IMG/VR virus record: IMGVR_UViG_3300006226_001721
Coordinates: 10,314-74,313 of that record
Direction: 5' to 3' (one strand)
Source of the DNA: a virus
Length of the DNA: 64,000 bases
Part shown: positions 4,093 to 63,225 of the stretch, piece by piece
Layout of the letters: the number at the start of each line of letters is the position of its first letter
Numbering within the stretch: the first letter of the stretch is position 1
Program-made: the position numbers and the translations under genes
The notes under the pieces: model-generated
Told to the model about the DNA's origin: nothing
Databases searched by the model: none
Seen by the model: only the letters and a program-made list of their open reading frames with translations

Positions 4093-4108
4093 ATTTGTAT
4101 ATTAACAT

Positions 4109-4131
4109 AAAAAAGCTCCCTTTCGGGAGCT
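4109..4131 (-). terminator. Intrinsic terminator
   Basis: AGCTCCC-GAAA-GGGAGCT hairpin followed by a U-tract on the minus strand. Confidence 0.8.
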
Positions 4132-4151: not shown

Positions 4152-4556
4152 TTAAGGAGTTAAATGTGCGTCTTGTAACGTAAATCTACTCAAAGACACT
4201 CCATTAGTTAAAGTACCTTTTCGTCTGTATAAAGATATCATATACCTATCAGGATAGAGCCTCCAAAACATAATTATGTCAGGAGTTACATATCCGATAT
4301 ACGAATGATAGCCTCTATTAATGTCGAACCTGAGCTCAAAGAACTTTTCGTCAAACTCTTCAAAATCTCTAAGTTCCCTCCACTCTGCCATATTAGTGGC
4401 TTGATCCCAATGCTCAAATGTTTCATAGTTAGCTTGTTGCTGACCATGAAGACACAAACTCATTGTCTGACCGTAGATTTTAGCTGGGCCAAACAAGAAT
4501 AGTAAAACTATTACGAATAGTAGTACTATCAAAATCGCTTGTCTTGTATTTAGCAT
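4152..4556 (-). CDS. Exported or membrane-anchored hypothetical protein (start moved to 4556)
   Basis: GGAGA SD before MLNTRQAILIVLLFVIVLLFLFG hydrophobic segment. Confidence 0.6.
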   Translation of the reverse strand: MLNTRQAILIVLLFVIVLLFLFGPAKIYGQTMSLCLHGQQQANYETFEHWDQATNMAEWRELRDFEEFDEKFFELRFDINRGYHSYIGYVTPDIIMFWRLYPDRYMISLYRRKGTLTNGVSLSRFTLQDAHLTP

Positions 4557-4578
4557 TCTATCTCCTAAAAAAGAATAC

Positions 4579-4814
4579 TCTAGGTGGGGTTGTGACGCTC
4601 TCGCCCTCCAGTGCCGCCTATCATCCGTCGATGATTCTTTCACCTTGCTTCGAGCCCTGGGGAAATGCAGCCGATCATTGAGTTTCACCGAATTATAAGT
4701 TCGGGAGGGACTTCATCTAAACAACATTATCCAGTCCGCTTCGGCCATTAAGCTGCGCACCGGTGATCAAATCCAGTGATTCTTAACAACCAGCCTCTAC
4801 CGGCCAGACCTAGA
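4579..4814 (-). ncRNA. Unassigned structured RNA (~236 nt)
   Basis: Terminal helix TCTAGGT/ACCTAGA, internal helices CACTGG/CCGGTG, GCAGC/GCTGC, GGACT/AGTCC, ATCATC/GATGAT; GC-richer than flanks. Confidence 0.45.
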
Positions 4815-4887
4815 AAACGTATGTGAGAATTGCACTCACCATCTCCGGCGCCGTTCCTCCAGCGCCGGCCAATGACTAATATACATT
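4815..4887 (-). ncRNA. tRNA-like element with no D stem
   Basis: Acceptor AATGTAT/ATACGTT, T arm GTGAG-TGCAATT-CTCAC, extended anticodon stem CCGGCGC/GCGCCGG. Confidence 0.45.
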
Positions 4888-5055
4888 AAGCAACTCTTCT
4901 AATGCAAATTCAACATCAGCAATCTCGTCAAACATCATGTTGATATCTGCCTGCTCCAAACGATCTTTTACCAATTTGATAAAAGCCAACTTTTCTTCTT
5001 TCGATAACTTATCCATAACGTCCTCCATACCACTGGGAACGAAAATGTTCAAAAT

Positions 5056-5152
5056 ATGAGTGAGCGCAGTAGTACTTTCTCACCGGGGCTCTAACTTTCA
5101 GTCTCGTTAGATTATCGGACCATAGTCCTGGCAGTGCCCGTTCCTCACTCAT
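5056..5152 (-). ncRNA. Unassigned multi-branched structured RNA
   Basis: 9-bp closing helix ATGAGTGAG/CTCACTCAT, GGGC/GCCC, GGAC/GTCC, TCTAAC/GTTAGA. Confidence 0.4.
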
Positions 5153-5168
5153 GAAGAAAGTTTCCGTT

Positions 5169-5250
5169 TCACACAGGCGAGATTTGCACTCGCAAACTCT
5201 GGGACGTTATCCCCAAAGCACAGTTTGCTTTTCTTATTGCATACTGCGTG
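5169..5250 (-). ncRNA. tRNA-like element with an aberrant anticodon arm
   Basis: Acceptor CACGCAG/CTGTGTG, T arm GCGAG-TGCAAAT-CTCGC; no clean 7-nt anticodon loop. Confidence 0.5.
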
Positions 5251-5435
5251 ATATTATTTCCAAAAGTATGTATTACCGTATTGTTCAATCAAACTATTAA
5301 GCTTGATTTTGTCTTTTGTAGGGAACCACATAGTATTTCCATACTTCTGCAATTTTCCATTCAGCCATTTTAAGGCTGCTGCTTTACTGATTATCCTCTT
5401 ATATGCAGCTGGTTTTCTCATTATTATCTCCCTTA

Positions 5436-5472
5436 CATATATTATATAAGATTAACTTCTCAGTCGTTCAAA
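5436..5472 (-). promoter_or_regulatory. Sigma70-like early promoter, copy 1
   Basis: TTTGAACGA-N11-ATCTTATATRATATATG with identical spacing at 38018-38054 and 56518-56554. Confidence 0.7.
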
Positions 5473-5487
5473 TATCTCCTAATTATT

Positions 5488-6381
5488 ATGAAATTCTTTT
5501 ATGGAAATAATTGTGAAAAAAGACCTAATAGTTATGTTGCTTGTAGGTTAACTAAAAAATGTCCACATGACTGTGTATATTGCATATCCGATGAATATAC
5601 AACTGATAATGTATTAGACAAACCTAATATTGATAAGATGGTGGAAAGTATAGTTATTACTTCCCCAGATGTTGTTATAGAAGGCGGAGAGCCGCTTCTA
5701 ATGATGGATGAATGTTTAGAATTAGTTCAGAAATTAAGACCTAAAGTTGATAAAATACATATTTATAGTAGTATGCCGCCAATATGTAGCACTAAAAAAG
5801 ATGTACTTAAACAAATACTTAATATAGTAGATGGAATAAATTTCAGTATGCAACATTATGACCCTATTATAGCTGACAAATTACGAAATACTGTAACCCC
5901 AGATTATCATAATAGAAATGAATTGTTAAAAGAATTGGTAGATGAATTTGGCAATAAGATAAGAGTATCATTTAATCTTATATTAGGATCATTAGATACT
6001 TTTGAGCATCTGTATAATAATATAATGTTTTTCATAAATATAGGAATTACTAATTTAAGAATTAGTGAGCTGTTATTAATGCCCCCTTTGTATGTTCCAA
6101 TAACTTCCATTATTAAAAATAAAAAATTATTTAAAAGTCCTTACGCATTTGGGTGTAAATTAGATTATGATGCCCATCAGCTTATAGATGAAATTCCTAT
6201 TGGAAAATGTAAAATAACTATTAGACGAGCATGCTTTTTAGTTGAACCAAGTGAAAAAGCCACTATTTATGATTTGATTAAGATGTTCAAATTATCTAAA
6301 AAGAAATCTGATGATTTTAACTTTAAGATCGTATTAGAAGATGGGACTATTCATAATAATTGGAACTCAGAACTTACATAA
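5488..6381 (+). CDS. Radical SAM protein
   Basis: CPHDCVYC (CxxxCxxC) and EGGEPLL motifs. Confidence 0.85.
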   Translation: MKFFYGNNCEKRPNSYVACRLTKKCPHDCVYCISDEYTTDNVLDKPNIDKMVESIVITSPDVVIEGGEPLLMMDECLELVQKLRPKVDKIHIYSSMPPICSTKKDVLKQILNIVDGINFSMQHYDPIIADKLRNTVTPDYHNRNELLKELVDEFGNKIRVSFNLILGSLDTFEHLYNNIMFFINIGITNLRISELLLMPPLYVPITSIIKNKKLFKSPYAFGCKLDYDAHQLIDEIPIGKCKITIRRACFLVEPSEKATIYDLIKMFKLSKKKSDDFNFKIVLEDGTIHNNWNSELT

Positions 6382-26879: not shown

Positions 26880-27992
26880 TTAATATAAATTAACATGTTT
26901 GCCATTGAATGGTTTGTGTTGATAACAATCTTTAAAAAACTGTACTTCGTTCTCTGTATAAGTTTTTCTAATTCCATACAAATCTGTAAAAAGTTGCTTA
27001 TAATACTTATATTCTTCTGTAGATTTACAATAATGCAATCTCATAACTGCCCAACGTAAATTGTATGATCTAGGTTTCGGTTGTTGTTTTAGATATCGCT
27101 GACAATATCTTTGCATTATATCTATGTCTACATCTGTTGAAGCAATTATATAAGAAATATCTTTTGCTTTCTTAAGCACATTTTTATGATTAATTATAGG
27201 TTTTTCAGATAATGCATTTTGATTATGAAATTTAATATGATAACTATAACCTGAAGTAGACTTAAAGCCATTAGTTCCAAACTCTTTTAACAGATCTTTT
27301 AAGTTCATAAAATCTTTATATTCAAAAATATAATCTGAATGTTCTATTCGATAAGCTCTATATTTTGCATTTGCTCCAATAAAAGCTCCTCGTAATGTTG
27401 TTTGTAAGTATATTGGATCAACTTTAAGATGTATGAGATTAGTTTGTACATGTTGATTTTGATCATAATAATCTACATCATAATTATTGAGATTAAGATA
27501 GCCAAAATAACAAATTAAATTAGCATTAAAAAGATCAGATATAAATATCTCATAATTCTTTACTTTAGATTTATTGAATCTTATTAGCTGATTAGATATT
27601 TTATCATATAAATCTTTACAGTTAACTGTCAAAAACATATCACCGCATGTAAAGAAAAGATATTGTCCTTTTAAGAAGTATTGATATTCTTCTATTGGAA
27701 AAGATACCATGTTATTCTGAATATCTAAACAAGTTGATAATCTAATTGCATAATTAAATGGAGATGCTGTAATATGTCCATATATGAAATTATCTTGTAT
27801 GCCTTTTTCATTTTTGATTTTTACACAACCAGGAATGATTTTAGTAAGAGGTGTGCTATATAAATGAATGAACAATTTAGCATACTTATTTGATAATAAA
27901 TTTAGAAATTTCAGATGAGCAAATCTATCTGTAGCCTTCCATTTAGAATAAATGGACTTTTTGGTTAAAGTTTCCCAGTCTATATAGTTCAT
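26880..27992 (-). CDS. Hypothetical protein
   Basis: 370-aa AT-rich ORF with no recognised motif. Confidence 0.5.
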   Translation of the reverse strand: MNYIDWETLTKKSIYSKWKATDRFAHLKFLNLLSNKYAKLFIHLYSTPLTKIIPGCVKIKNEKGIQDNFIYGHITASPFNYAIRLSTCLDIQNNMVSFPIEEYQYFLKGQYLFFTCGDMFLTVNCKDLYDKISNQLIRFNKSKVKNYEIFISDLFNANLICYFGYLNLNNYDVDYYDQNQHVQTNLIHLKVDPIYLQTTLRGAFIGANAKYRAYRIEHSDYIFEYKDFMNLKDLLKEFGTNGFKSTSGYSYHIKFHNQNALSEKPIINHKNVLKKAKDISYIIASTDVDIDIMQRYCQRYLKQQPKPRSYNLRWAVMRLHYCKSTEEYKYYKQLFTDLYGIRKTYTENEVQFFKDCYQHKPFNGKHVNLY

Positions 27993-36292: not shown

Positions 36293-37705
36293 TTATACAG
36301 TCAATCCAACTGCGTGGTTGACAAGTTTCTTCTTATCTGTTGTTCCATCCAACTGCATATTGAAAGCTACATCCAACCGTTTCTTAAAGTCCGGGCCAGG
36401 TTTCAACCCCTCAGCTATCAAATGAACTCCAGTCACTATTGGCTCTGGCAGTACTTGACCAAACTGTTTCACCAAGTCAGTCACACACTTATCAAAGTCT
36501 ATCATATCTTTCGTATTAGGTACACCATTCGATGCAGCAGTTCCCAAAGTATCACAAGCAGACAAGTTGAACAGTAAGTGAAAGTCTTTGCTTCCCAACA
36601 GTCGCCGTATCTTATGTACTTTCTTCATTTTCGGCAAATCATGAGCATTCATGTGCCGGCGAACTAAAGAAGCAACTCGATCAACTATCTCAGAAGGGAA
36701 CCGCATCCTCACTAGTATCTCTCTAGTCAGATCAGCACCAACTGTATCGTGATTTAGAAAGCGGCTACTACCATCAGTTTTCTTCTCACGGCAAAAAGGC
36801 TTTCCAATATCATGCAACAAAGCGGCCAACATTAGAACCAACTTCTCATTGTCATCTGCCAACGGAGCATCGAACTTACCAACTTGTCCACCACAAACTA
36901 CATCATTTGCTGCTTGAAATACGAACATAACATGGGCTAATATCGTATTGCCGAAAGGCTTCATTGTCTCAGTGTGCCAAGAGTTGTTGTGTGCCTCGTG
37001 CAGTCTTGCGGTCTCAGGAATTAGCATCTGCATTATGTTCAACTCAAACATGAGCTTAACTGTTTCAAATGCAGAAGGACCAATTAGCAACTTACTCAGC
37101 TCAGCAGTGATCCGCTCCTGACTCACACCAGAAAAGCTGCAGCCATTTAGCACGAACTTCTCAATGGCCTTCATTGCTGCCTTGTCTAAAGTGAAGCTCA
37201 GTTGACTCATGAAGCGAAAAGCACGTAAGATCCGCAACTTGTCTTCGGTGATTCTGTCTATTGGGTTACCAACAAAACAGATCTCCTTATCATGAATGTC
37301 AAGAGTTCCAGCAAATGGATCTCTCATTATCTCCTTAATAGGATCCCAAGCCATCGCATTCATTGTGAAGTCGCGCCGTGCTAAATCTATCTCAATGTCA
37401 CGGACAATCTCTATACCATCCGGCCTGCGACCATTTCCGCCAATATCTTTTCTATACTGGGCGATCTCATAAGGAATGCCATTCACAACAACGGCTGTTA
37501 TTCCAAAAGCCTCACCAATTTCTAACACCTGAAAATCTGCAAAGATGCGCTTAATGTCAGCAGGTGATGCATTGCTTGTCAAGTCAATATCGTGAGGTTC
37601 TTTACCCATTTGAAAGTCTCTGACTGCTCCACCTACTACATAGCACTCAAAGCCATTAGAGTTCAGACGGCTAGCAATCAGATTAACGTTTGCATTTTTC
37701 TTCAT
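36293..37705 (-). CDS. cca: CCA-adding tRNA nucleotidyltransferase with HD domain
   Basis: VGGAVRD, DIDL, DLARRDFTMNAMA, EDKLRILRAFRF, ERITAEL, HDIGKP. Confidence 0.88.
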   Translation of the reverse strand: MKKNANVNLIASRLNSNGFECYVVGGAVRDFQMGKEPHDIDLTSNASPADIKRIFADFQVLEIGEAFGITAVVVNGIPYEIAQYRKDIGGNGRRPDGIEIVRDIEIDLARRDFTMNAMAWDPIKEIMRDPFAGTLDIHDKEICFVGNPIDRITEDKLRILRAFRFMSQLSFTLDKAAMKAIEKFVLNGCSFSGVSQERITAELSKLLIGPSAFETVKLMFELNIMQMLIPETARLHEAHNNSWHTETMKPFGNTILAHVMFVFQAANDVVCGGQVGKFDAPLADDNEKLVLMLAALLHDIGKPFCREKKTDGSSRFLNHDTVGADLTREILVRMRFPSEIVDRVASLVRRHMNAHDLPKMKKVHKIRRLLGSKDFHLLFNLSACDTLGTAASNGVPNTKDMIDFDKCVTDLVKQFGQVLPEPIVTGVHLIAEGLKPGPDFKKRLDVAFNMQLDGTTDKKKLVNHAVGLTV

Positions 37706-38069: not shown

Positions 38070-39185
38070 ATGAATGCTAATTTGTTCAACAAAATTCATG
38101 GATCTAATCTAAAAGAGGCTCGAGAGCCGAAAGAAGGCGAAATAGCTTCAAAAGATGGAAAACGAACATATATAGAATCCCATGATGCTGCTGTTCAACG
38201 ATTCGGTAGTAATGTACCTGCTAAACCAGAAGGTTATAATACTGTCTATGATAATGTTAGAGGAGTTTGGGCTCCTAATAATGATGTAGAGGGCTACGGA
38301 TATGAAGATGCTTGTCGATCAATCATGCAATCATTGCCACAAGGTTCTCCAGAACGACAACAAATGGCTCAACGCATTCAGTCATTACGAAGTAATGAGC
38401 GCACTTCAAGTTGGCTTAACATATTCAATGATCTATCAGGAGTCAATCAAAATAGCACTCGAAATTATGGAATGAATGCTGCCGGCAATCAAGCTGAAAA
38501 TGATGCTATTGTTGGTGGAGCAACTGCTGAAGAAGCCAGACGTGCTGGGAATTCTGCGGCATGGGATCAAGGGATTAAAGGTTGGGCTACTGGAACAGCA
38601 GGATTAGCTGCAGGTATGGCAGTTGGATATGCTGCAGTATTTACATTACCAGCGTTATTAGCAAAAGCTGGTCCACTATTAGCAAAGTTTGGTATTAGAT
38701 TAGGTGCAGAGGCTCTTAAGAAACTATTTGGAGAATTAGCATCATTATTCCAAAGTCTATTTGCTGACAATCCAGAATTAGATCCAGCTAATCAAATGGC
38801 AGATAACTTTCTGCAGTTTGATGTTAAGAACTTAGTCACTAAGGCACAACAGCAACAAGATGCTTATTCTAAAAGTGTAGCCACTGCACTATCACCATTA
38901 GCTAATAGAAAGAATGATGCAATCAAAGAATCTGTTCTTAAAGAAGTTGGTTGGTTGAATGCTGCTAAAGCTATTGGTAGTGGAATTAAGAATGTTGCGG
39001 GGGCTGTTGGAAATGCTTTAGGTGGAAGTGAGCAAGGACCAAATGAGACACTTAAACAACAAACTAACAATGGCTTACAATTTGATGTCAATAATCTATA
39101 TCAAAAGACAACAATGGTGAAGACTAAATACTCACAAGAGTTAGAAACAGCAATGAAAAGCCTATTACAAGGAATGCAAAATTAG
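38070..39185 (+). CDS. Probable virion internal/ejection protein
   Basis: LKE|A and LKE|V sites, Ala/Gly-rich hydrophobic stretch, located upstream of the prohead protease. Confidence 0.5.
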   Translation: MNANLFNKIHGSNLKEAREPKEGEIASKDGKRTYIESHDAAVQRFGSNVPAKPEGYNTVYDNVRGVWAPNNDVEGYGYEDACRSIMQSLPQGSPERQQMAQRIQSLRSNERTSSWLNIFNDLSGVNQNSTRNYGMNAAGNQAENDAIVGGATAEEARRAGNSAAWDQGIKGWATGTAGLAAGMAVGYAAVFTLPALLAKAGPLLAKFGIRLGAEALKKLFGELASLFQSLFADNPELDPANQMADNFLQFDVKNLVTKAQQQQDAYSKSVATALSPLANRKNDAIKESVLKEVGWLNAAKAIGSGIKNVAGAVGNALGGSEQGPNETLKQQTNNGLQFDVNNLYQKTTMVKTKYSQELETAMKSLLQGMQN

Positions 39186-53816: not shown

Positions 53817-53829
53817 ATAAACTGAAAAA

Positions 53830-53901
53830 TAGTTCCAACCGGATTTGCACCGATACTACAACCTTCGCAGGGTTGTGTGTTATCTATTACACTATGGAAC
53901 T
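53830..53901 (-). tRNA. tRNA-Arg(GCG)
   Basis: Cloverleaf; anticodon loop CT-GCG-AA; no encoded CCA. Confidence 0.9.
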
Positions 53902-54118
53902 AAAAGATACGCCAAGGCCGTAGTTGCTTAAGAAAAAAGATAGAAAAGTATATAGCAAAGTATGGCCACATTAGAAAGCACAACATAAAATGAAGCACTT
54001 TTTCACTGAGGAGTTCTACTGAATCTTTTAACGCTAATTCATTACAAACGGCAAATATCATGCCAATAACAAAATAAGAAATCAAATACATCATATCCGA
54101 TCCTAACAGGAATTGCAC
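53900..54118 (-). CDS. Small membrane protein
   Basis: Two hydrophobic segments between tRNAs. Confidence 0.45.
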   Translation of the reverse strand: MQFLLGSDMMYLISYFVIGMIFAVCNELALKDSVELLSEKVLHFMLCFLMWPYFAIYFSIFFLKQLRPWRIF

Positions 54119-54169
54119 CCATATTCCTGGTTCCGAAGACCAGTGTCTTATCTGTTAGACGATAGGACC
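54098..54169 (-). tRNA. tRNA-Arg(TCG)
   Basis: Cloverleaf; loop CT-TCG-GA. Confidence 0.9.
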
Positions 54170-54304
54170 TCAATCAAAAATATCTTCTAATACTTCTTCT
54201 ATTTTCTCAGGTATATCTTCAAAAATAACTTCAGGTACCTTTTCAAATAAAAATTCTGGTACATCCTCAAAAATAAAATCTAATAAACCCATTTAAATTC
54301 CTTT

Positions 54305-54377
54305 TACCTCCAGAGAGAATTGCACTCCCGACCAACGGATTAGAAGTCCGCTACTCTATCTCCTGAGTTATGGAGGC
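54305..54377 (-). tRNA. tRNA-Arg(TCT)
   Basis: Cloverleaf; loop CT-TCT-AA. Confidence 0.9.
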
Positions 54378-54725
54378 GTTCATAAACTTCGCTCTATCTC
54401 GAAATAGGCGATCAATATCTTTTTGTACATCTGTTAAGTCACTTTCTACAATGATAAGACCATCATTAGGAGTTGCCCAAACTGAAATGAAGCAACAGTC
54501 AGGATCATCATAGTTGTAGTTGAAAGTGATCTCTGGTTCTCTGTGCCAGATGACATCTAATCCATCTTCTCCTAGAACGATATAGATATCTGAATCTATC
54601 ACATTAGCCAACTTTTCTAAGAATTTGGCTGATAGTGTCATATTCAGCTTTATCTTACCATAAAGTTGAATGTATCGCTTTATAGCATCTTGCATCTTCA
54701 AATCTAACATATGTAGTGTTATCAT
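54351..54725 (-). CDS. Hypothetical protein
   Basis: ORF whose 3' end overlaps tRNA-Arg(TCT). Confidence 0.45.
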   Translation of the reverse strand: MITLHMLDLKMQDAIKRYIQLYGKIKLNMTLSAKFLEKLANVIDSDIYIVLGEDGLDVIWHREPEITFNYNYDDPDCCFISVWATPNDGLIIVESDLTDVQKDIDRLFRDRAKFMNASITQEIE

Positions 54726-54878
54726 AATAAATAGTAACGGATGGGAACAACCGCCCTTCACTCGATCGATTGAATGGGTCCGTCAACTCCATAAGACAGT
54801 TTGCTATGATTGTCTCCTAACACAGAACGTAACGTGTTCATCTACGTCACAGTCTACTACTATAGTCTCGACTGTTAG

Positions 54879-54951
54879 TCAGAACGGCTGGATTTGAACC
54901 AGCGACATCTTGGCTCCAGACCAAGCAGGCTCCCAACTGCCCTACGCTCTG
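54879..54951 (-). tRNA. tRNA-Pro(TGG)
   Basis: Cloverleaf, C1-G72, A73; loop TC-TGG-AG. Confidence 0.85.
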
Positions 54952-54962
54952 ATACGGGTGAT

Positions 54963-55124
54963 ATGGATAGGAAATGGATTGGACCACTCATCTTTTACAC
55001 ATAGTATGATTACTCCTGTTTTCGTCATACTGTCTACTATTCTCTTAACTAGTATGGGTGAGAAATACGTAGAACCCTCTTTGCACTCCTGCTAGTGTAA
55101 CTGTTTTCTTTAAACTACTATCCA
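54963..55124 (-). ncRNA. tRNA scaffold with a 96-nt insert replacing the anticodon loop
   Basis: Acceptor TGGATAG/CTATCCA, D stem GTTT/AAAC, anticodon stem TTACA/TGTAA, degenerate T arm. Confidence 0.6.
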
Positions 55125-55130
55125 AGCTAT

Positions 55131-55288
55131 TCGACAAGGTAGAGTTACGAACTCTCATTTTCTGCAAAGGTGTTCAACATCAGCGTCGACTATGCCAACG
55201 TTGAATGAAGGGCTTATCAGTGTCCGGATTGTTGCCCACACTCATCTCTCTCCGATATTGCAGCTGTTTTTCATTAAACTACAAGTCG
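55131..55288 (-). ncRNA. tRNA scaffold with a 90-nt insert replacing the anticodon loop
   Basis: Acceptor CGACTTG/CTTGTCG (two U-U), D arm nearly identical to its neighbour, stem CTGCAA/TTGCAG, T loop TTCGTAA. Confidence 0.55.
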
Positions 55289-55405
55289 TTAAAATGTGGG
55301 CTTTCCACCCACTCTGGGATTCCACCAGTTGGCTCATTACTAGTTCACCTCACCTGTTAACTCAGGGACTCTCGAAAGAGCGGAGTTTAGTGAACATCGC
55401 AAGAT

Positions 55406-55478
55406 TGGACCTGACGCGATTCGAACGCGCATTTCACTCCTTGCAAAAGAGGACGATAGCCTTTATCGTAACAAGCCC
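55406..55478 (-). tRNA. tRNA-Ala(TGC); an alternative register would read GCA
   Basis: G3.U70 and A73 Ala determinants; loop TT-TGC-AA. Confidence 0.7.
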
Positions 55479-55483
55479 AAAAG

Positions 55484-55681
55484 CAGGAACTGTCTAAGGC
55501 GACACTAGACGAACAGCTCCTATTGTACGCATCCTCACCAGGCCTTACGTAAGTATGTAGTCGCAAAGTGTGGATCTAAGATCTTTATTGAACGACTATA
55601 TCCTCGGCCATACTAAACCGGACCTGGTAACTTTAGTCCAGGCTACATAACAGATACTAAACTCCCTAGGGTTTTTCTGCT
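55484..55681 (-). ncRNA. Unassigned structured RNA between tRNA-Gly and tRNA-Ala
   Basis: AGCAG/CTGCT closing helix, CCTGG/CCAGG, TAGTCG/CGACTA, GGAGCTGT/ACAGTTCC. Confidence 0.45.
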
Positions 55682-55686
55682 GTTTG

Positions 55687-55759
55687 AGCGGGTAAGGGGA
55701 ATTGAACCCCTGACAACAAGTTTGGAAAACTCGTACTCTACCAACTGAGTTACACCCGC
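55687..55759 (-). tRNA. tRNA-Gly(TCC)
   Basis: Cloverleaf; loop TT-TCC-AA; U73. Confidence 0.92.
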
Positions 55760-55766
55760 AAAAATG

Positions 55767-55848
55767 CACCGGTCCGCGGGCTTAGCACCCACGGTCCGGC
55801 GTCTTAAACTATTTTGACGTACATAGTTCATGACGCTATGCAACCGGT
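55767..55848 (-). ncRNA. Degenerate tRNA-like element
   Basis: ACCGGT/ACCGGT acceptor, ATAG/CTAT D stem, extended T stem CCGTGGG/CCCGCGG, 12-nt anticodon loop. Confidence 0.4.
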
Positions 55849-55849
55849 T

Positions 55850-56515
55850 TCTATCCCGTCGGATCTTTTCCAGGATAACCTTCAACCTGCTGGCTGCCAA
55901 ACTATGGGCATTTAAAGCGGTACCTCTACCAGAATTTCTACTAATTTGAAGCTGCAGCAATTACCCGCACTTATGACCTTTTGAGTCCACTTCTTATTTC
56001 CACCACTTAGTATGCCGCAATTCGGCGGGTGCGGCTCACATTCACTTTTAGACCAACGAACGTGAAAGTCATGGATATACAGACGAACGACCATCTGCTG
56101 TTAGTCCTTCTGCCCTCCGGCGAACCAACTCCCAAACTGACGTCTCTACTCGTCCAACATTTGGGTATTTTCTACTAACAATAAAGTTCAAGGCTTAACC
56201 GATTCGCGGTACCACCTTTTACTTCACTATCAATAACGGTCAATAAAAGCCGCGCTTACTTAATATACCGCCAACGCGTGGGTCACGGTCAGGATTACAC
56301 TTCCGTCATATCTTGGTGGTCCAGCGACCTGTTGGTAACTCTACACCTAATGTCACATCCTAATAAGTTCTACCAAGTGGCTCGTACCAATAGAGCTCTT
56401 CTTGCAGCCGTAAGCTTGAATTAAGTCCCTGATCCAGATACTCACCACCTCCAGCGGCCTGTTGGCAACTCTCAGCTTGTTATATCCGCTAGCAGGAGCG
56501 GCTCTCGGTTTCCCT
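55850..56515 (-). ncRNA. Candidate large structured ncRNA (or cluster of them)
   Basis: No credible ORF, GC-richer, starts at the early promoter, 22-nt repeat at 56321-56342 and 56451-56472. Confidence 0.4.
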
Positions 56516-56517
56516 TA

Positions 56518-56554
56518 CATATATCATATAAGATTAGATCTTATATCGTTCAAA
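56518..56554 (-). promoter_or_regulatory. Sigma70-like early promoter, copy 3
   Basis: Same 37-nt layout as 5436-5472. Confidence 0.7.
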
Positions 56555-56661
56555 ATACTATGCTGGCAAGAGGTCTTGCACCATTCAACTATCTTTACGC
56601 TCGAGCCGTAGATAAGTCTTCGCCCCTTCGTTTCGTCTCCACTACTCCGCCGGCTTCCAGC

Positions 56662-56847
56662 TTATATGTACTCCGTCAGATCTTCTTCTAACGGCGTAAT
56701 TGCTATTCCATACTTCTTTTTGAGACGATATCCCTCTTCTAGAATGCCGTCTTCTAAACCATGATTGTAACCATTAGCATAACCTATCTTCATAGAAAAG
56801 ACAGCTACCAAGATAAGTCCAACTAATAGCAAACTATACGCTATCAT
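56662..56847 (-). CDS. Small membrane protein
   Basis: N-terminal TM helix. Confidence 0.5.
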   Translation of the reverse strand: MIAYSLLLVGLILVAVFSMKIGYANGYNHGLEDGILEEGYRLKKKYGIAITPLEEDLTEYI

Positions 56848-57017
56848 CGGCTAACTTGTCTATGGCTTTACGTATGGCTGATGCCATGTTGTGGACATCA
56901 TTTGTAGTTTCACATTGATTGAAAAGCTCTGTCATTCGTTTAGTCAGTTGATGTAGAGCATTAAAGATGATTGTTGGCTTGTTTTCTTCCATAATGATAT
57001 ATTAACATTAGTATAAG

Positions 57018-57138
57018 TCCGCCAGACAGGGTTTGCACCTGTACGATGGTCTAGCCATCAGCAGGCTATACTCACCAGCCCTCCGGCCTTAAGGTTACAT
57101 ATAGTTCCCGCCGCGTCTCCTATTTTCGCCACTGACGA
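57018..57138 (-). ncRNA. tRNA-Leu-type scaffold with a 41-nt anticodon loop
   Basis: Leu-type D arm TGGCGAAAATAGGAGACGC, stem GCGGG/CCTGC, long variable arm, T arm ACAGG-TGCAAAC-CCTGT, A73. Confidence 0.65.
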
Positions 57139-57213
57139 CAGAGCCGCCGCGATTTGAACGCGGAATTACCTGATTTGGAGTCAGGAGGCTTAGCCAATTA
57201 AACCGACGGCTCT
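57139..57213 (-). tRNA. tRNA-Trp(CCA)
   Basis: Cloverleaf; loop CT-CCA-AA; G73. Confidence 0.9.
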
Positions 57214-57505
57214 ATTTTAATGGACGGATATACTGTCGATAAGTGTTCCAAGCTTGAACTGGAGTTGCATCACCGAAGACAAATCGTGTCCTATACTGTC
57301 CGCAACAGCAACACTGAAGTTGCTCTCCGCATGTACAACAAGTGGAAGAAGACTGTCCGGCATTTTGTTCCAAACGCCATTTTTCGTATTCTTGTAAGAA
57401 GAACTCTCTCATAGTAGTTGCGCCTGTGTAGTCGTACATCTTCCAATTATCAGGTTGCTTCTTTTCTTTGTGTACATAATGACAATGGTTATGTTTGCAT
57501 TTCAT
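57212..57505 (-). CDS. Cys/His-rich hypothetical protein
   Basis: CKHNHCH and CCTC...CCCC; ACTAACTA motif 2 nt before ATG. Confidence 0.5.
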   Translation of the reverse strand: MKCKHNHCHYVHKEKKQPDNWKMYDYTGATTMREFFLQEYEKWRLEQNAGQSSSTCCTCGEQLQCCCCGQYRTRFVFGDATPVQAWNTYRQYIRPLK

Positions 57506-57823
57506 ATTAGTTAGTAACGCTTCTTCGGTGGCTTTACATCTTTAAGAAGATTCTCTATTTGGTACATCTCTCTTAAGACGTCTTCCTCTCTACTCTTATT
57601 CCCATTCTCTCTAGCATAAATGAGTTGGTCTATCTTCCTCTTATAGATTTTACGTAAATGATGTTCAGATAGGCCCTCATACCCATTCATTTACTCTCCT
57701 ATAACATGTTGATCAGCTGTATTACTAAATTTCCTATGCTACCAACAATAATGATGCTTGTTCCTATTAGCATCAATAGTTCATATTTCCTTATTGACAT
57801 ATTATCCTCTCTAAATTAAGATA

Positions 57824-57895
57824 GGTGACATACGGGAATCGAACCCGTGTATCAAGATCCACAATCTTGCGCCTAAACCACTCGGCCAATGCCAC
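57824..57895 (-). tRNA. tRNA-His(GTG)
   Basis: Cloverleaf; loop TT-GTG-GA; C73. Confidence 0.9.
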
Positions 57896-57949
57896 ATACG
57901 GAATAGATGGTTCTGCCCCACCGCCGTAATTCTTTACGCTTGCTTTCGC

Positions 57950-58432
57950 CTAGCTGTCCAACCCATAATAGAATATGCCGTTGTCCTGCTTTTTACTCCG
58001 TTCTATTTTCTTCATTTCTTTTTCTATTTCTTCTTTCTTATATTCTAATTCCTTTATCGACCTATATGCTTGCCAATGTTCGTTAAAGTTGATAGATTCT
58101 TTGAACTCCTCAAACCATTTACTTTCGCGCTGTTCTGTTTCTGAAAGCTCTCTTTCTTTTGACCAATACTTAGTCGGATGGCCTTTCCCAACAACAAAAG
58201 CATAGCTAAAAAGAACAAGCCCTGCAATGAGATACAGTCCACCTATAAAGATCGTTATCACTAAGTTCATCCAACCCATCCCCCAGATGAATCTACTTAA
58301 TGTCCAAAGTTCTTGCGGATTCATTAGAATGGCTCCTAACAATGCAAACATCAAACAGAAAAAGCCATTACAGGCTGCATAAAAGTAGACTGTCTTTTTG
58401 ACGATAGACCTTATCTCACTATAACTAAACAT
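57950..58432 (-). CDS. Membrane protein
   Basis: Two TM segments plus a coiled-coil tail. Confidence 0.55.
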   Translation of the reverse strand: MFSYSEIRSIVKKTVYFYAACNGFFCLMFALLGAILMNPQELWTLSRFIWGMGWMNLVITIFIGGLYLIAGLVLFSYAFVVGKGHPTKYWSKERELSETEQRESKWFEEFKESINFNEHWQAYRSIKELEYKKEEIEKEMKKIERSKKQDNGIFYYGLDS

Positions 58433-58443
58433 ATTACTCCTCT

Positions 58444-58514
58444 AGCAGAAGGCCGGTAACGCTCCGGCATCACGTATTTGGCAAACACGTATCTTTCTGT
58501 TGGACCACATCTGC
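58444..58514 (-). tRNA. tRNA-Gly(GCC)
   Basis: Cloverleaf; loop TT-GCC-AA; U73; atypical T loop AGCGTTA. Confidence 0.8.
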
Positions 58515-58647
58515 ACGACACTTAGAACACAGTCCATATTCATAGACTGGGTTATCTAAATCTTCTCCTTCTTTAACGTCGTGTTCTATTACGTCCCCAC
58601 ATATAGAACACCATACCACCCTACTCATCTCTTTCCCCCTTTTTCGA

Positions 58648-58718
58648 TACTCGATAAAGGATTTGCACCTCTGCGAAAACGGTGTAAACGTTCCATGCTC
58701 CTGTTACATCAATCGAGC
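58648..58718 (-). tRNA. tRNA-Val(TAC)
   Basis: Cloverleaf; loop TT-TAC-AC. Confidence 0.88.
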
Positions 58719-58755
58719 ATATACCAGATAAGGGACTTGCACCCTATACTCTTTT

Positions 58756-58829
58756 TACACGGGGTGAGATTCGAACTCACACTACTAAGGGCCTAAACCT
58801 TATGACTCCTTCCGTTGGTCTACCCGTGC
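58756..58829 (-). tRNA. tRNA-Leu(TAG) with a short variable loop
   Basis: Cloverleaf; loop TT-TAG-GC; 5-nt variable region. Confidence 0.8.
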
Positions 58830-59453
58830 ATTATATAGTAATTTTTTGGACTCATTATATCTCCAAAAATCACAATTTAATTTTTCTATAATAATATTTT
58901 GTCTTATTATATCTTTTTCTTTTAATTCACCATTTATATAATGTTTTGGTTCATCATATTCAAAAACTATGTTTAATTTAGCATCATACCCATCTAAAAA
59001 ATAACCACAAAATGTAAATTCACCACCATTTAAAGCATGTTGTAAATTCCAATTTTTTTCTTTATTAAGTTTATCAATAAAATCACAAGCTTTTTTATTA
59101 AAATTAGCTCCTCTATTTTTACCTGTAAGTTTTAATCTTTCAATAAATATTAGTCTTAATTTCTCTTTAGTTTCTTTTGATAAATTTTTATTTAACCAAT
59201 AATGACCACTTTTATTTGGATTTTTTTCACATAATTTTTCATGTAAAGAATTTCCACTATTAGTTGTTATTTTTATTCTTTTACACCACTTACATTGCCT
59301 TTTTATTTTTTCATCTCTATTACTAGAATAATTCATTTGATGACCTTCAATTCTTTTATGGTCTAAACATTCCTCCTTTGTTCTAAAAGTTTGGTTACAT
59401 ATTCTACATAACCAATTATTTTTTGAATTTCTATATTGTCTTTTTCTTTCCAT
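58800..59453 (-). mobile_element. Free-standing homing-endonuclease-like gene (C2H2 zinc finger plus Vsr/DUF559-like nuclease)
   Basis: CRIC...H...H, CKWC, LDGYD...FEYDEPKHY...KDIIRQ; very AT-rich; own ACTAATTA promoter. Confidence 0.6.
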
Positions 59454-59615
59454 AATAATTAGTACACATACTTAAATTAACTAGCACGTGTACTAATTCC
59501 GCCAATCTGGCTAAAACGGATATAGCATAAGATTCCTACTATACCCAATGGATAGCAATTCGCTGCAGCAATTCTATCCGTGGTAAGTTTCAGGCCTAGA
59601 ACTTACAAACCGGCC

Positions 59616-59701
59616 TACCGAAAGGGAGACTTGCACTCCCACGCCCCTTATTGGACACAAGACTCTCGATCTTGGGCGTCTTCTAATTCCGCCATTTCGG
59701 C
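59616..59701 (-). tRNA. tRNA-Leu(GAG)
   Basis: Cloverleaf with long variable arm; loop TC-GAG-AG. Confidence 0.85.
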
Positions 59702-59958
59702 TTTTCTTGCTTTCGTCTTTTTAGCTTGGCATCTTTCACAAACTACATAGACATCCTTTTGTCCATCCTCGTCACTAGCGATAAGTCTTACAACCTGTCT
59801 ACAACTAGTACACCACTCTATTATGCTCCCCATGCTGATCACCTCTTACACATATTTAGTAAGGCATGATGTCTAAAATGATGGTCAATCTAGGGAGATA
59901 GAAGGCACTCTCCAGTCCTTCCACGGAAGTTTGAGGGAGCTTACTTCTAACCACATTA

Positions 59959-60033
59959 AGTCCCAGGAGGGAATCGAACCCTCTAAACATCTGCTTTGCA
60001 GGCAGTGCGCCAGGCCACTAACGAATCCGAGAC
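59959..60033 (-). tRNA. tRNA-Cys(GCA)
   Basis: Loop CT-GCA-AA; U73. Confidence 0.85.
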
Positions 60034-60284
60034 ATAAAGTGACGTTTTAACTCCAGTCGAGTGATCCTGTCGATCCGTCACGTAATTAGTCGGGCGGTCC
60101 TTTTTAAGTAGTCACCGCCTGCCTACTGACATTGGTTGTTGACGGAGTTACCAACCTCTTCTCCGACATGACTTACATGCTTCATAGTTAAGCACCTTCC
60201 GAGGGATTATGTTCTACTTAACTATTGGGGATGCACCGGTTACAATGCAACCTTCCACCATCTGCTTTAATCTAAGCAGAAAAT

Positions 60285-60857
60285 CTAAAACCCAAACAAA
60301 GACCATTCCGGTTGATGAACCGTAACGGACGCTTTCAACTTTTGCATGTTAGATAGAACTGGCTTAGTTGGCATGAACTTTGGTTTGACTTTCATCTCAC
60401 TCAATGTCTTATCACCTTTGTCCCAGTTGCATCTTTTGCAACATGTCACCATATTCTCCCAAGAACTCCGTCCTCCTTTTGAAAGCGGAATTACGTGATC
60501 GATAGACAATTTGCCTTCACTGAATACATCACCACATAGATAACATGTGTAATGATCTCGCTCATATATGCTCTTCCGAGAAAGTCTAAATGACACTTTC
60601 GGAACTTTGTCATATCGAAGATAACGAATGACCTTTGGAATAGCTATTCGCTGTGATACTGAGTTGATGAACTCTGTACCTTCCGGCCACTTATCTTGTA
60701 ATGATAGATTAACCCAATCATCCCAATTCATAGGAGTCCAACTATCTCCCATTATGTACATTGCCTCCACGGCACCTGTGTACATCTTACCAATCGTGGC
60801 ATATTTGCTACACAATCTTATGGGGATATAGCTTTTGTTCAATGCTAAAACTTTCAT
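60285..60857 (-). CDS. HNH endonuclease (start moved to 60857)
   Basis: VLALNKSY, RKSIYERDHYTCYLCG, IDHVIPLSKGG, NMVTCCKRCN. Confidence 0.9.
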   Translation of the reverse strand: MKVLALNKSYIPIRLCSKYATIGKMYTGAVEAMYIMGDSWTPMNWDDWVNLSLQDKWPEGTEFINSVSQRIAIPKVIRYLRYDKVPKVSFRLSRKSIYERDHYTCYLCGDVFSEGKLSIDHVIPLSKGGRSSWENMVTCCKRCNWDKGDKTLSEMKVKPKFMPTKPVLSNMQKLKASVTVHQPEWSLFGF

Positions 60858-60872
60858 CTTAAAACTCCTAAA

Positions 60873-60945
60873 TGCGCGAGGGTGGACTTGAACCACCAAC
60901 CTTTACCTTATAAGAGTACTGCTCTCACCATTGAGCTACTCACGC
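60873..60945 (-). tRNA. tRNA-Ile(TAT)
   Basis: Cloverleaf; loop CT-TAT-AA; A73. Confidence 0.85.
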
Positions 60946-60949
60946 ATGT

Positions 60950-61220
60950 AGTCCATCCTGAAAAGCGGCTTGCCGCATTGTCGCATTCGGTAGGACGCCG
61001 TTATCTTCTCTTTCAGTAACTCTTTTGAGCTCGCGCCACTCCTGGTCGCATTCGTGGCTCTCAATTAGTGTTTCAGGCTTGGCAGTAGCTGTACTGATGC
61101 CTCGGCTCTGCTGCGTGGTCACTAATCCCGGGATTTCTAACGTTGCCCGGATCTCAATTCAGCGGCTATTTGCTAGATTGCCTCCACATTCTTCTCAGCA
61201 GGCTGCCACAATCTCACTTT
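60950..61220 (-). ncRNA. Unassigned GC-rich structured RNA between tRNA-Ser and tRNA-Ile
   Basis: No credible ORF; CGAATGCGAC repeated at 60980-60989 and 61045-61054. Confidence 0.4.
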
Positions 61221-61240
61221 AAGTCTATAGCTAGACACTT

Positions 61241-61324
61241 CGGAAAGAGGGAGACTCGAACTCCCAGTACCTTGCGGTACACACAGTTTAGCAAACTGGC
61301 CGACTACCATTATCACATCTTTCC
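61241..61324 (-). tRNA. tRNA-Ser(GCT)
   Basis: Long variable arm; loop TT-GCT-AA; G73. Confidence 0.88.
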
Positions 61325-61505
61325 ATCTAATCAAATAACTCAGCACCTTGTGTTCGTTCTAGTGTTCTCATTCTAACGAACTTTTGCCATTCTGGACTTT
61401 TTCGTATGTACTGATAGTAACGAGAAAGCCAAACTGCGTCTTTTTGCTTACACGCTTTCATCACATGGTCTGGAGTTAGCTTTCTAACATCGTCTAGTGC
61501 TCTCA

Positions 61506-61745
61506 TTAGTCAAACAACTCCCACACTTCTGGTTGATCCTCTGGCTTATTAGATAGTACAGCACTAAATAGATCATACAGATCTTTATGATACAGATCAC
61601 AATATCCAACACATAACTCCTTATCACCATAAGACAACCCCATCTTTCTCGCTTTGAAGTACTTACATTTAGTTTCACATACGATCCTTATAGACGGATC
61701 TCTAACATACTTCTTCATCTCATCACGAGACACACAATTTAGCAT
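61506..61745 (-). CDS. Cys-rich hypothetical protein
   Basis: GAGG SD; several Cys pairs. Confidence 0.45.
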   Translation of the reverse strand: MLNCVSRDEMKKYVRDPSIRIVCETKCKYFKARKMGLSYGDKELCVGYCDLYHKDLYDLFSAVLSNKPEDQPEVWELFD

Positions 61746-61915
61746 ATATTACCTCAATTTTCGTTTGGCAGAACTATACTGCTCTTTGAACAATATGTCA
61801 AACTCTACTCTTGACAGTTTCTTTTCGGCACCTGTTACTTTGTTCACTAATAGGTACTCCTTTTTGTGGCAATCATATGAGATAACTGTGAACTCAAATG
61901 ATGCATGAGCCGGCT

Positions 61916-62581
61916 TCAACTTTTGCATTCTTCATAAACCTCTGTAAAATTAACACCATACTTATTAGTTGCATAATTAATATATGGTTCAATATCAACA
62001 TTATCAATAATAACAAGTTTGTGTTTAAATGCTGCTATTTTTGCCTTTGTTTGTTGATCATAAGCGCCCCTTTTTCTTCCTTTAATTTCATAATAAGTAT
62101 CTCCTATAAGAAAATCAGGATAATATTTCCTATTTTTTCCTTCAAACAAATATTCAAATCCTTCATTATTTCTTATTGGCTTGATTCCATTATCTAATAT
62201 CTTAATAAGAAAAGCAAGTTCCCACGAACTATCACAAAAAAATCCTTTATACCATCCTTTTTTTCCTCTTCCACTTCCATGTCGCTTTCCTCCAATAGTT
62301 CCTTTTATCGATGCTGTTAGTCTTATCTTTGCTTTTGTTTCTTCACTAACAGTATGTCCTATACAATCAACTCTATTAGGATTTTCTTTACAATATTTAA
62401 CATGATTAGATCCTCTTTGTTCTTTACAAAATGGACATTCTCTTTTACTTGAATTTTTTCCCTCAGTTCTATGATTAGGATTTTGATTAAAATGTTGTTG
62501 TAATAGTTTTCTTGTAACAAAAATTTCATTACAAGTTTTACAGAGCCAACCACCTTCTTTTCGTTTTCTATTATCTTTCAT
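61916..62581 (-). mobile_element. Free-standing homing-endonuclease-like gene (C2H2 zinc finger plus PD-(D/E)xK nuclease)
   Basis: CKTC...H...H, CPFC, DSSWELAF, YYPDF...YEIKG; AT-rich; ACTAAATA promoter. Confidence 0.6.
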
Positions 62582-62622
62582 ATTATTTAGTTAAATTAAC
62601 AATCAAGACTATAAGAACTTAC

Positions 62623-62714
62623 CGGAAAGTGTAGGATTCGAACCCACGGTACCTTTCTCAAGGTACTCTCGATTTCAAGTCGAGTGCATTTTATCCAGAC
62701 TCTGCCAACTTTCC
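62623..62714 (-). tRNA. tRNA-Ser(TGA)
   Basis: Long variable arm; loop CT-TGA-AA; G73. Confidence 0.9.
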
Positions 62715-62772
62715 ATTACGTTCAATTTCAATTTAGGTAGAAATACCACGCGGGACCTAACAACACCTTTTT

Positions 62773-62888
62773 GGCAATATGGTAGGATTTGAACCTACGA
62801 CCACTGGATTAACATTCCTGATAGTAATTGCGGTAAAAGCCGTTACACGGCTCACTTTTAAGCGCTCTACCACTGAGCTACATATTGC
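62773..62888 (-). ncRNA. tRNA-like RNA (GTT, Asn-type anticodon arm) with a 42-nt insert after position 26
   Basis: 8-bp acceptor GCAATATG/CATATTGC, canonical D and T arms, CAGGA-ATGTTAA-TCCAG arm, insert 62821-62862. Confidence 0.6.
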
Positions 62889-62891
62889 TTC

Positions 62892-62962
62892 TGAGCCCGG
62901 GTGGAATCGAACCACCATAACAAGATTAAAAGTCTTGGGTACTACCATTGTACTACGAGCCC
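62892..62962 (-). tRNA. tRNA-Lys(TTT)
   Basis: Cloverleaf; loop CT-TTT-AA. Confidence 0.92.
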
Positions 62963-62965
62963 ATT

Positions 62966-63153
62966 TAACGACTATAAGCAGGGTTCTGTTAGTCGACTAT
63001 CATCTGTCTATTTGCCCGCTACCTTGCATCATAGGAGAATCCATATCCTAGCTAACTTGCGGTTGCATCCTGAAGTGGTGATAACGCTAAATGCTCCCAC
63101 TACTGATTCTGATGCCCTGACTTTCCTCTCCGCAGAGCGATAGTCCGTCGTTA
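62966..63153 (-). ncRNA. rnpB: Minimal RNase P RNA (catalytic domain only)
   Basis: GAGGAAAGTCAGGGC and AACAGAACCCTGCTTAT (P4), P1 TAACGAC/GTCGTTA, P2 GACTATC/GATAGTC, P5 CATC/GATG, P15 CCGC/GCGG. Confidence 0.85.
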
Positions 63154-63225
63154 TGCCAGATGTGGCGCTCGCATCCACACTATACGATTTTCAGTCGCAT
63201 GCTCTACTACTTGAGCTAATCCGGC
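63154..63225 (-). tRNA. tRNA-Phe(GAA)
   Basis: Cloverleaf; loop CT-GAA-AA. Confidence 0.88.

Follow-up and report, generated by a model that had tools for sequence, protein, structure and literature searches.

The locus described here lies on the minus strand of the window, a 64,000-nucleotide stretch of DNA from a large uncultured phage. The window is a fragment of a jumbo phage and forms part of a 94-kb IMG/VR record (G000) with an estimated completeness of 29%. Judged by its sequence signals, the locus reads as a single transcription unit of approximately 1.35 kb, in which three small genes lie between a host-type promoter and a terminator. From 5′ to 3′ on the minus strand, the elements follow each other in the order promoter, ORF1, a first tRNA-like element (TLS1), a 16-nt linker, a 97-nt stretch, ORF2, a second tRNA-like element (TLS2), a 236-nt stretch, ORF3 and terminator (Table 1). 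The GC content of the region (~48-52%) compares with a genome mean of 36% and, given that the 95th and 99th percentiles for 100-nt windows are 47% and 53%, falls within approximately the top 2-5% of such windows, making it elevated but not unique.

Two relatives of the phage were available for comparison, a 329 kb phage with terminal repeats (G001) and a 261 kb phage (G002), the NrdD proteins of which are 81-83% identical to the NrdD encoded in the window. The window contains 16 tRNA genes identified by ARAGORN, two additional ones identified by Rfam and a tmRNA gene, all of them on the minus strand.

Table 1. Features of the transcription unit and copies of its promoter motif, in window numbering
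Feature	Position	Strand	Description
Sigma-70-like promoter	5441..5471	-	-35 TTGAAC at 5471-5466; -10 TATAAT at 5446-5441; 19 nt between
Copies of tTTGAAC-N13-ATCTTATATAAT	5452, 33298, 38034, 56534; outside the window, 70705 (G000:C1:81018)	-	Motif search
ORF1	5254..5421	-	55 aa; RBS GGGAG; purifying-selection pattern against L016 homologue
TLS1	5169..5250	-	Non-decoding tRNA-like element; descriptor match; z = -3.0
97-nt GC-rich spacer	5056..5152	-	9-bp closing helix; z = -2.0
ORF2	4876..5016	-	46 aa orphan; RBS GGAGGA; called as gene on public contigs
TLS2	4815..4887	-	tRNA-like element without D arm; descriptor match; z = -4.4
236-nt GC-rich non-coding stretch	4579..4814	-	z = +0.57; closure expected by chance
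ORF3	4152..4556	-	134 aa; hydrophobic N-terminal segment; RBS AGGAG
Intrinsic terminator	4105..4131 (hairpin 4131-4114)	-	AGCTCCCGAAAGGGAGCT followed by T run; conserved

Transcription signals and small protein genes

The promoter of the unit is one instance of a conserved motif, tTTGAAC-N13-ATCTTATATAAT, that is present in both G000 and G001 and occurs five times in the 94-kb record, each time on the minus strand. The -10 element of the unit promoter may alternatively be TATATA, with a 17-nt spacer. The ATCTTATATwAT core was found 18 times in G001, with 11 of these instances located behind TTGAAC, and copies of the promoter motif are often followed downstream by a shared leader, ATATGTAAGGGAGAT. 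The initial annotation had proposed an early promoter at 5436-5472, and the existence of a promoter there is corroborated by its membership in this motif family and by its presence at the same place in three related loci (L006, L007 and L016, the latter a related phage contig from JGI 3300002462). Early expression of the unit is plausible, since the motif looks like a host sigma-70 promoter. At the other end of the unit, the terminator hairpin is also present in L006.

The promoter copy at 56534 drives an RNA-rich part of the tRNA array. Extending from this copy into tRNA-Gly(tcc), the segment at 55760-56520 (minus strand) comprises ~770 nt, is GC-rich, lacks a convincing ORF and features an internal repeat and a GGTGGTACCGCG motif. 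No Rfam family matched this segment at E up to 10, and its similarity to G001 is limited to the promoter; it constitutes a candidate large ncRNA.

The small ORF that the initial annotation placed downstream of the promoter corresponds to ORF1, which has a single, divergent homologue, on L016. Over the 43 codons aligned between them, differences at codon positions 1, 2 and 3 number 6, 1 and 23, and the codon changes divide into 19 synonymous and 6 non-synonymous; this pattern indicates that ORF1 is a true gene under purifying selection. ORF2 and ORF3 are each preceded by a good RBS. No homologue of ORF2 was detected among 1.8 billion representatives, and the searches likewise yielded none for ORF3, the slot of which is occupied in L006 and L007 by a different signal-peptide gene; the ORF3 region shows weak DNA similarity to another related locus, L040 (~70% over 86 nt). 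Pfam provided no match for the small proteins of the unit or for the neighbouring ORFs. TLS2 takes in the 3′ end of ORF2, namely its stop codon and the three sense codons before it.

Two non-decoding tRNA-like elements

Both tRNA-like elements were recovered with a strict descriptor, which demands a T stem of 5 bp without mismatches, a T loop of 7 nt matching U-[UG]-C-R-A-N-N and, directly after these, an equally perfect acceptor helix of 7 bp. Matches to this descriptor in the window comprise only TLS1, TLS2 and the tRNA array, all of them on the minus strand, while 20 shuffled windows yielded between 0 and 3 matches (mean 0.85 per 64 kb, both strands). The 5′ end of TLS1 lies 4 nt past the ORF1 stop codon. 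The predicted fold of this element is cloverleaf-like and combines an acceptor stem of 7 bp with a D-like arm of 3 bp, a 9-bp arm capped by a 6-nt loop (AUAACG) and the T arm GCGAG-UGCAAAU-CUCGC; its discriminator base is A. TLS2, predicted to fold as a three-way junction, has a 7-bp acceptor stem and, in place of the D arm, a 12-nt linker; its 9-bp GC arm carries the loop GAGGAA, its T arm reads GUGAG-UGCAAUU-CUCAC and its discriminator base is U. These results, together with the z-scores of the two elements, agree with the initial annotation, which had described two tRNA-like elements here and had noted the missing D stem of the second.

Compared with a canonical tRNA, both elements possess the acceptor stem (7 bp) stacked on a T stem (5 bp) whose loop has 7 nt (U54...A58), and depart from it in the D arm and in the anticodon arm. 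In place of the 5-bp stem and 7-nt loop of the latter, both have a hairpin of 9 perfect base pairs capped by 6 nt, so that neither TLS1 nor TLS2 can decode. A search of 4300-5700 gave no tRNA match to RF00005 (gathering score 29 bits), even with E values up to 10 allowed. ARAGORN called neither element at its default settings, producing under relaxed settings (-ps80) only a poor, forced tRNA-Gln fold on TLS1.

The sequences of TLS1 and TLS2 identify them as derivatives of phage-type tRNAs. Their UGCAAWU T loop, which has G at position 55, is shared with several tRNAs of the phage (three tRNA-Arg genes, tRNA-Leu(gag) and one further tRNA), and TLS2 and tRNA-Arg(tct) at 54305-54377 have the same 13-nt T-arm core. 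Sequence comparison also identifies the two elements as paralogues of each other; they can be aligned over 31 nt, from the 3′ strand of the long arm through the variable region to the T arm, with a score that was not reached in any of 300 shuffles. Searches for relatives carrying TLS1 or TLS2 found none, and a covariance model built on the single sequence of TLS2 matched only ordinary tRNAs sharing its T arm.

The 97-nt and 236-nt stretches

The initial annotation interpreted the 97-nt stretch as a junction RNA and the 236-nt stretch as a structured RNA closed by TCTAGGT/ACCTAGA. For the former, the closure exists, the 9-bp helix being one of two in the region, and is borderline (p about 0.15), while its standing as a discrete RNA finds no backing. 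The closure of the latter belongs to a set of 17 complementary 7-mer pairs in the region, where 8.3 are expected, and is at chance level; shuffled sequence folds just as well as the 236-nt stretch, high pairing probability is confined to three short hairpins, and the structured RNA is hence not upheld. The absence of a spacer between TLS2 and this stretch is confirmed, as the 236-nt stretch begins immediately after the TLS2 discriminator base.

Rfam, to which the initial annotation had pointed, provided no family match for either stretch at E up to 10, returning noise-level eukaryotic matches (E 2.7-5.9). No relatives of the two stretches were detected in phage, viral or metagenome searches, and blastn and nhmmer found no similarity to the region in GenBank phages or in the whole of G001 and G002. 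An 18-mer from the 236-nt stretch recurs in four IMG/VR contigs, in all cases inside coding DNA, and these were considered chance matches. Several known RNA classes were also discarded. The presence of GAUGAAGUCC had suggested an RNase P RNA for the 236-nt stretch, and this was rejected given the lack of an RF00010 match in the region; Y RNA/YrlA was rejected because the region has no RF02553 match and the TROVE domain (PF05731) expected of a Ro60 (Rsr) protein is absent from G000, G001 and G002; and T-box, hammerhead, SRP RNA and group I intron were rejected for both spacers on the Rfam result.

Certain parts of the 236-nt stretch are reminiscent of tRNA. It opens with a 7-nt acceptor-like strand, two bases and a D-like arm, GGCC-GGUAGA-GGCU, and also contains an anticodon-arm-shaped hairpin (CCGAA-CUUAUAA-UUCGG) and a 12-mer in common with TLS2, and is devoid of a T arm. 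The stretch may thus be the remnant of a tRNA scaffold; its similarity to the large non-coding region of the array and to insert-bearing tRNA scaffolds is not significant. The 97-nt stretch in turn contains a 9-mer of TLS2, GAGGAACGG.

Neither stretch has a processing mark downstream at its 3′ end, and both run directly into the RBS of the next gene, the 97-nt stretch into that of ORF2 and the 236-nt stretch into that of ORF3; because of this, we read them as probably the 5′ leaders of these genes. The full claim of the initial annotation, according to which processing sets both stretches free as discrete novel early ncRNAs, draws on the fact that they are non-coding and GC-rich within an AT-rich phage, on the flush junction between the 236-nt stretch and the TLS2 discriminator, which mirrors that of tRNA-Trp with the tRNA-like gene following it in the array, and on the tRNA-like opening of this stretch. 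Against these stand the missing 3′-end marks, the continuation into the next RBS, the fold and closure statistics of the 236-nt stretch and the lack of both Rfam matches and homologues, and we deem such release quite unlikely.

The stretches could also act as cis-regulatory leaders that gate the translation of ORF2 and ORF3 in a riboswitch-like, thermosensor-like or processing-dependent manner. The RBS and start codon of either gene are predicted to be partly engaged in local hairpins (mean unpaired probability 0.36-0.38), and structures of this kind occur at T4 translation starts (PMC3014915). Pairing probabilities of such size are nevertheless common for any leader, no known riboswitch class in Rfam matches, and specific gating of this type is, in our assessment, very unlikely.

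Comparative analysis of the locus

Using NrdD and the 121-aa gene downstream as anchors in viral and metagenome contigs, we located seven related loci (L006, L007 and L039-L043); the radical SAM gene, used as an anchor in the same way, revealed no relatives. L006, L007 and the five metagenome loci retain the same promoter or the downstream 121-aa gene, with other genes between, and the RNA module is absent from the slot in all seven. Because the slot holds other genes and no RNA module in these loci, the cassette can be described, from the sequences compared, as hypervariable and the RNA module as lineage-specific. For the same reason, comparison across related phages furnished no covariation beyond that between the two paralogues, the remaining public contigs with the region being identical copies.

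The sequence of L016 past its ORF1 homologue is unrelated to the window. At 444-573, following the ORF1 homologue, this contig carries a ~130-nt tRNA-like element with a 7-bp acceptor helix (AAUCGGU/GCCGAUU), the T arm GGGA-UUCAAAU-UCUC and an insert of ~90 nt, the similarity of which to the RNAs in the window is not significant. Elsewhere in L016 (1121-1205), an 85-nt tRNA-His with a long extra arm is found 8 nt past the stop codon of another small gene. To judge from these two sequences, the presence of a tRNA-shaped element after ORF1 is conserved in position and not in sequence.

Hypervariability of the slot raises the prospect that the module is debris, generated by recombination of a tRNA-array piece and small ORFs into the cassette and consisting of decaying, functionless pseudogenes. 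The lineage-specific distribution of the module, the recurrence of short TLS2-like fragments in the 236-nt and 97-nt stretches and the absence of a fold signal in the former are in line with this notion. Decay, however, would break helices, and while TLS1 and TLS2 have diverged strongly, differing in five of the seven acceptor pairs and in one T-stem pair, all 42 of their base pairs (21 in each) are intact, which argues against simple decay. Their T loops still conform to the consensus, the adjoining ORF1 is under purifying selection, and we consider an origin as functionless debris rather unlikely.

tRNA array and RNA-processing genes

The phage encodes components of its own for tRNA processing. 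A 192-nt match to bacterial RNase P RNA (RF00010; 58 bits, below the gathering score of 100; E 3e-17) is located at 62962-63153 on the minus strand, between tRNA-Phe and tRNA-Lys. This miniature RNA keeps P1/P2 and both strands of P4, with the whole S domain replaced by ~13 nt, and is conserved in G001 (C1:30197-30406, plus strand; 69.5 bits). A CCA-adding enzyme (Pfam PolyA_pol, E 2e-29) is encoded at approximately 37280-37645 on the minus strand (G000:47593-47958) and is also found in G001 and G002. None of the phage tRNA genes encodes CCA, and neither do TLS1 and TLS2. Within the array, ORFs end between -7 and +1 nt from tRNA 5′ ends and start 11-19 nt past tRNA 3′ ends, and on account of this close packing mixed mRNA-tRNA transcripts look routine for the phage.

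The array harbours further non-canonical elements on the minus strand that were not called by ARAGORN: a 120-nt tRNA-like element adjoining tRNA-Trp, with a long GGAG-capped arm (57019-57138), a 74-nt tRNA-like element (59960-60033) and a 114-nt tRNA with a ~40-nt insert after the D arm and a homologue in G001 (62774-62887). Non-canonical tRNA-like genes in G001 include those at 27748-27859 and 38519-38586. Across 53829-63225 (minus strand), the three Arg, the Leu-gag and one more tRNA have G in place of U at T-loop position 55 and single-G D loops.

Discussion

RNase P and RNase Z read the top half of tRNA, formed by the acceptor stem and the T arm in a 12-bp coaxial arrangement. The two mimics present such a top half on the transcribed strand and at cistron boundaries, as t-elements do, with acceptor stem, T stem and T loop kept at the ORF1/ORF2 and ORF2/ORF3 junctions. 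Since they retain exactly the parts that both enzymes recognise, the best available reading, to which we tentatively assign a probability of about 0.45, is that TLS1 and TLS2 are t-element-like cutting signals for RNase P and RNase Z that split the operon message. The support for this reading is anatomical. It is favoured by the lack of encoded CCA in tRNAs and mimics in a phage with a CCA-adding enzyme and a miniature RNase P RNA, by the fact that the true tRNAs of the phage abut ORFs in the same way, and by the presence in L016 of a different element with acceptor stem and T arm that ORF1 also precedes.

The cleavage steps and the timing we infer can be laid out as follows. RNase P, involving the host enzyme, the miniature RNA of the phage or both, would cut at the 5′ end of each mimic, and RNase Z would cut after its discriminator base, converting the polycistronic transcript, possibly early in infection, into separate messages for ORF1, ORF2 and ORF3. 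The freed mimics might then be capped by the phage CCA-adding enzyme, and the 97-nt and 236-nt stretches would stay on the messages as base-paired 5′ leaders of ORF2 and ORF3 instead of becoming free ncRNAs. The initial annotation had proposed that the tRNA-like pieces are processing signals that release novel ncRNAs. The signal part of this proposal is compatible with the retained top half, the location at gene boundaries and the RNase P RNA and CCA-adding enzyme of the phage; the release of discrete ncRNAs is not sustained, considering the lack of a downstream mark, of Rfam matches and of relatives, and the missing fold signal in the 236-nt stretch.

Three observations count against the cutting-signal reading. 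The first is the absence of the module from this slot in L006, L007 and L039-L043. The second is that an RNase P cut at the 5′ end of TLS2 would strip ORF2 of its stop codon and the three sense codons before it, yielding a non-stop message. The t-elements of mitochondrial nad6 and ccmC likewise remove the ends of reading frames (PMC1920247), and the phage carries a tmRNA. The third observation is that the 9-bp arms exceed the needs of a simple cutting mark, hinting at a further role; their shared geometry of 9 bp and 6 nt, together with the Shine-Dalgarno-like loop of TLS2 (GAGGAA), suggests functions for the mimics that may go beyond marking cuts.

Carried further, this line of argument would make TLS1 and TLS2 themselves the products, as stable non-decoding RNAs that bind or titrate a host or phage factor, with processing serving merely for their maturation. 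The factor could be a tRNA-targeting defence nuclease, a tRNA-modifying enzyme or a GGA/SD-binding partner engaged by the GAGGAA loop. Perfect arms with the same geometry in both paralogues would fit such a role, as would the recurrence of GAGGAACGG in the 97-nt stretch and the existence of other non-decoding mimics in the array, such as the one with the GGAG-capped arm, and phage tRNAs are known to counter tRNA-targeting defences (PMC10264068). The loops AUAACG and GAGGAA are nonetheless unrelated in sequence, no partner protein is evident nearby, with neighbouring ORFs lacking Pfam matches, and neither element was found in relatives, making a titrating role somewhat improbable.

Going beyond this, the operon could be conceived as a small RNA factory in which the S-domain-less RNase P RNA of the phage and the RNase Z of the host would release, as early ncRNAs, two stable mimics together with one or both of the 97-nt and 236-nt stretches, which would act on the host, for instance through titration of an RNA-binding factor or the ribosome by the Shine-Dalgarno-like GGAGGAA loop. 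We regard this scheme as decidedly improbable. Returning to the cutting-signal reading, if the mimics are cut as proposed, the phage would split its messages with tRNA-processing enzymes, as mitochondria do, with one of these enzymes partly supplied by the phage itself. This would represent an unrecognised layer of phage gene control and would explain the persistence of tRNA-like debris between phage genes. Our search of the literature found no paper describing tRNA-like punctuation elements in phages.

Embedded tRNAs or tRNA mimics are known to direct the RNase P and RNase Z cuts that define neighbouring RNAs in mitochondrial tRNA punctuation, in mascRNA/MALAT1 and in the tRNA-miRNA units of MHV68. 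These systems are eukaryotic or organellar and have no sequence relationship to TLS1 and TLS2. Among phages, T4 produces small stable RNAs, RNA C and RNA D, from its tRNA region (PMC3014915); these reside inside a tRNA cluster, whereas TLS1 and TLS2 are situated between the protein genes of a separate operon, and no sequence relationship is to be expected. The closest resemblance in sequence is to phage tRNAs, particularly tRNA-Arg(tct) at 54305-54377 and the tRNA-Thr of G001, with which TLS1 and TLS2 share an identical or near-identical T arm, the UGCAAWU loop, the 7-bp acceptor stem and the lack of CCA, differing from them in having no 5-bp/7-nt anticodon arm and, in the case of TLS2, no D arm. 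Functionally, the most pertinent parallel is provided by the t-elements of plant mitochondria, at which cuts by RNase P and RNase Z generate mRNA ends, also inside reading frames, and of which a freed instance is stable and receives CCA-type additions (PMC1920247, Forner et al. 2007). Like TLS1 and TLS2, t-elements have non-canonical tRNA-like folds with a conserved T arm and are located between or inside reading frames (PMC1920247). They differ in being organellar elements with mapped ends, whereas TLS1 and TLS2 belong to a phage and have predicted ends, and it is TLS1 and TLS2 that have the remodelled 9-bp arm and the G55-type T loop.
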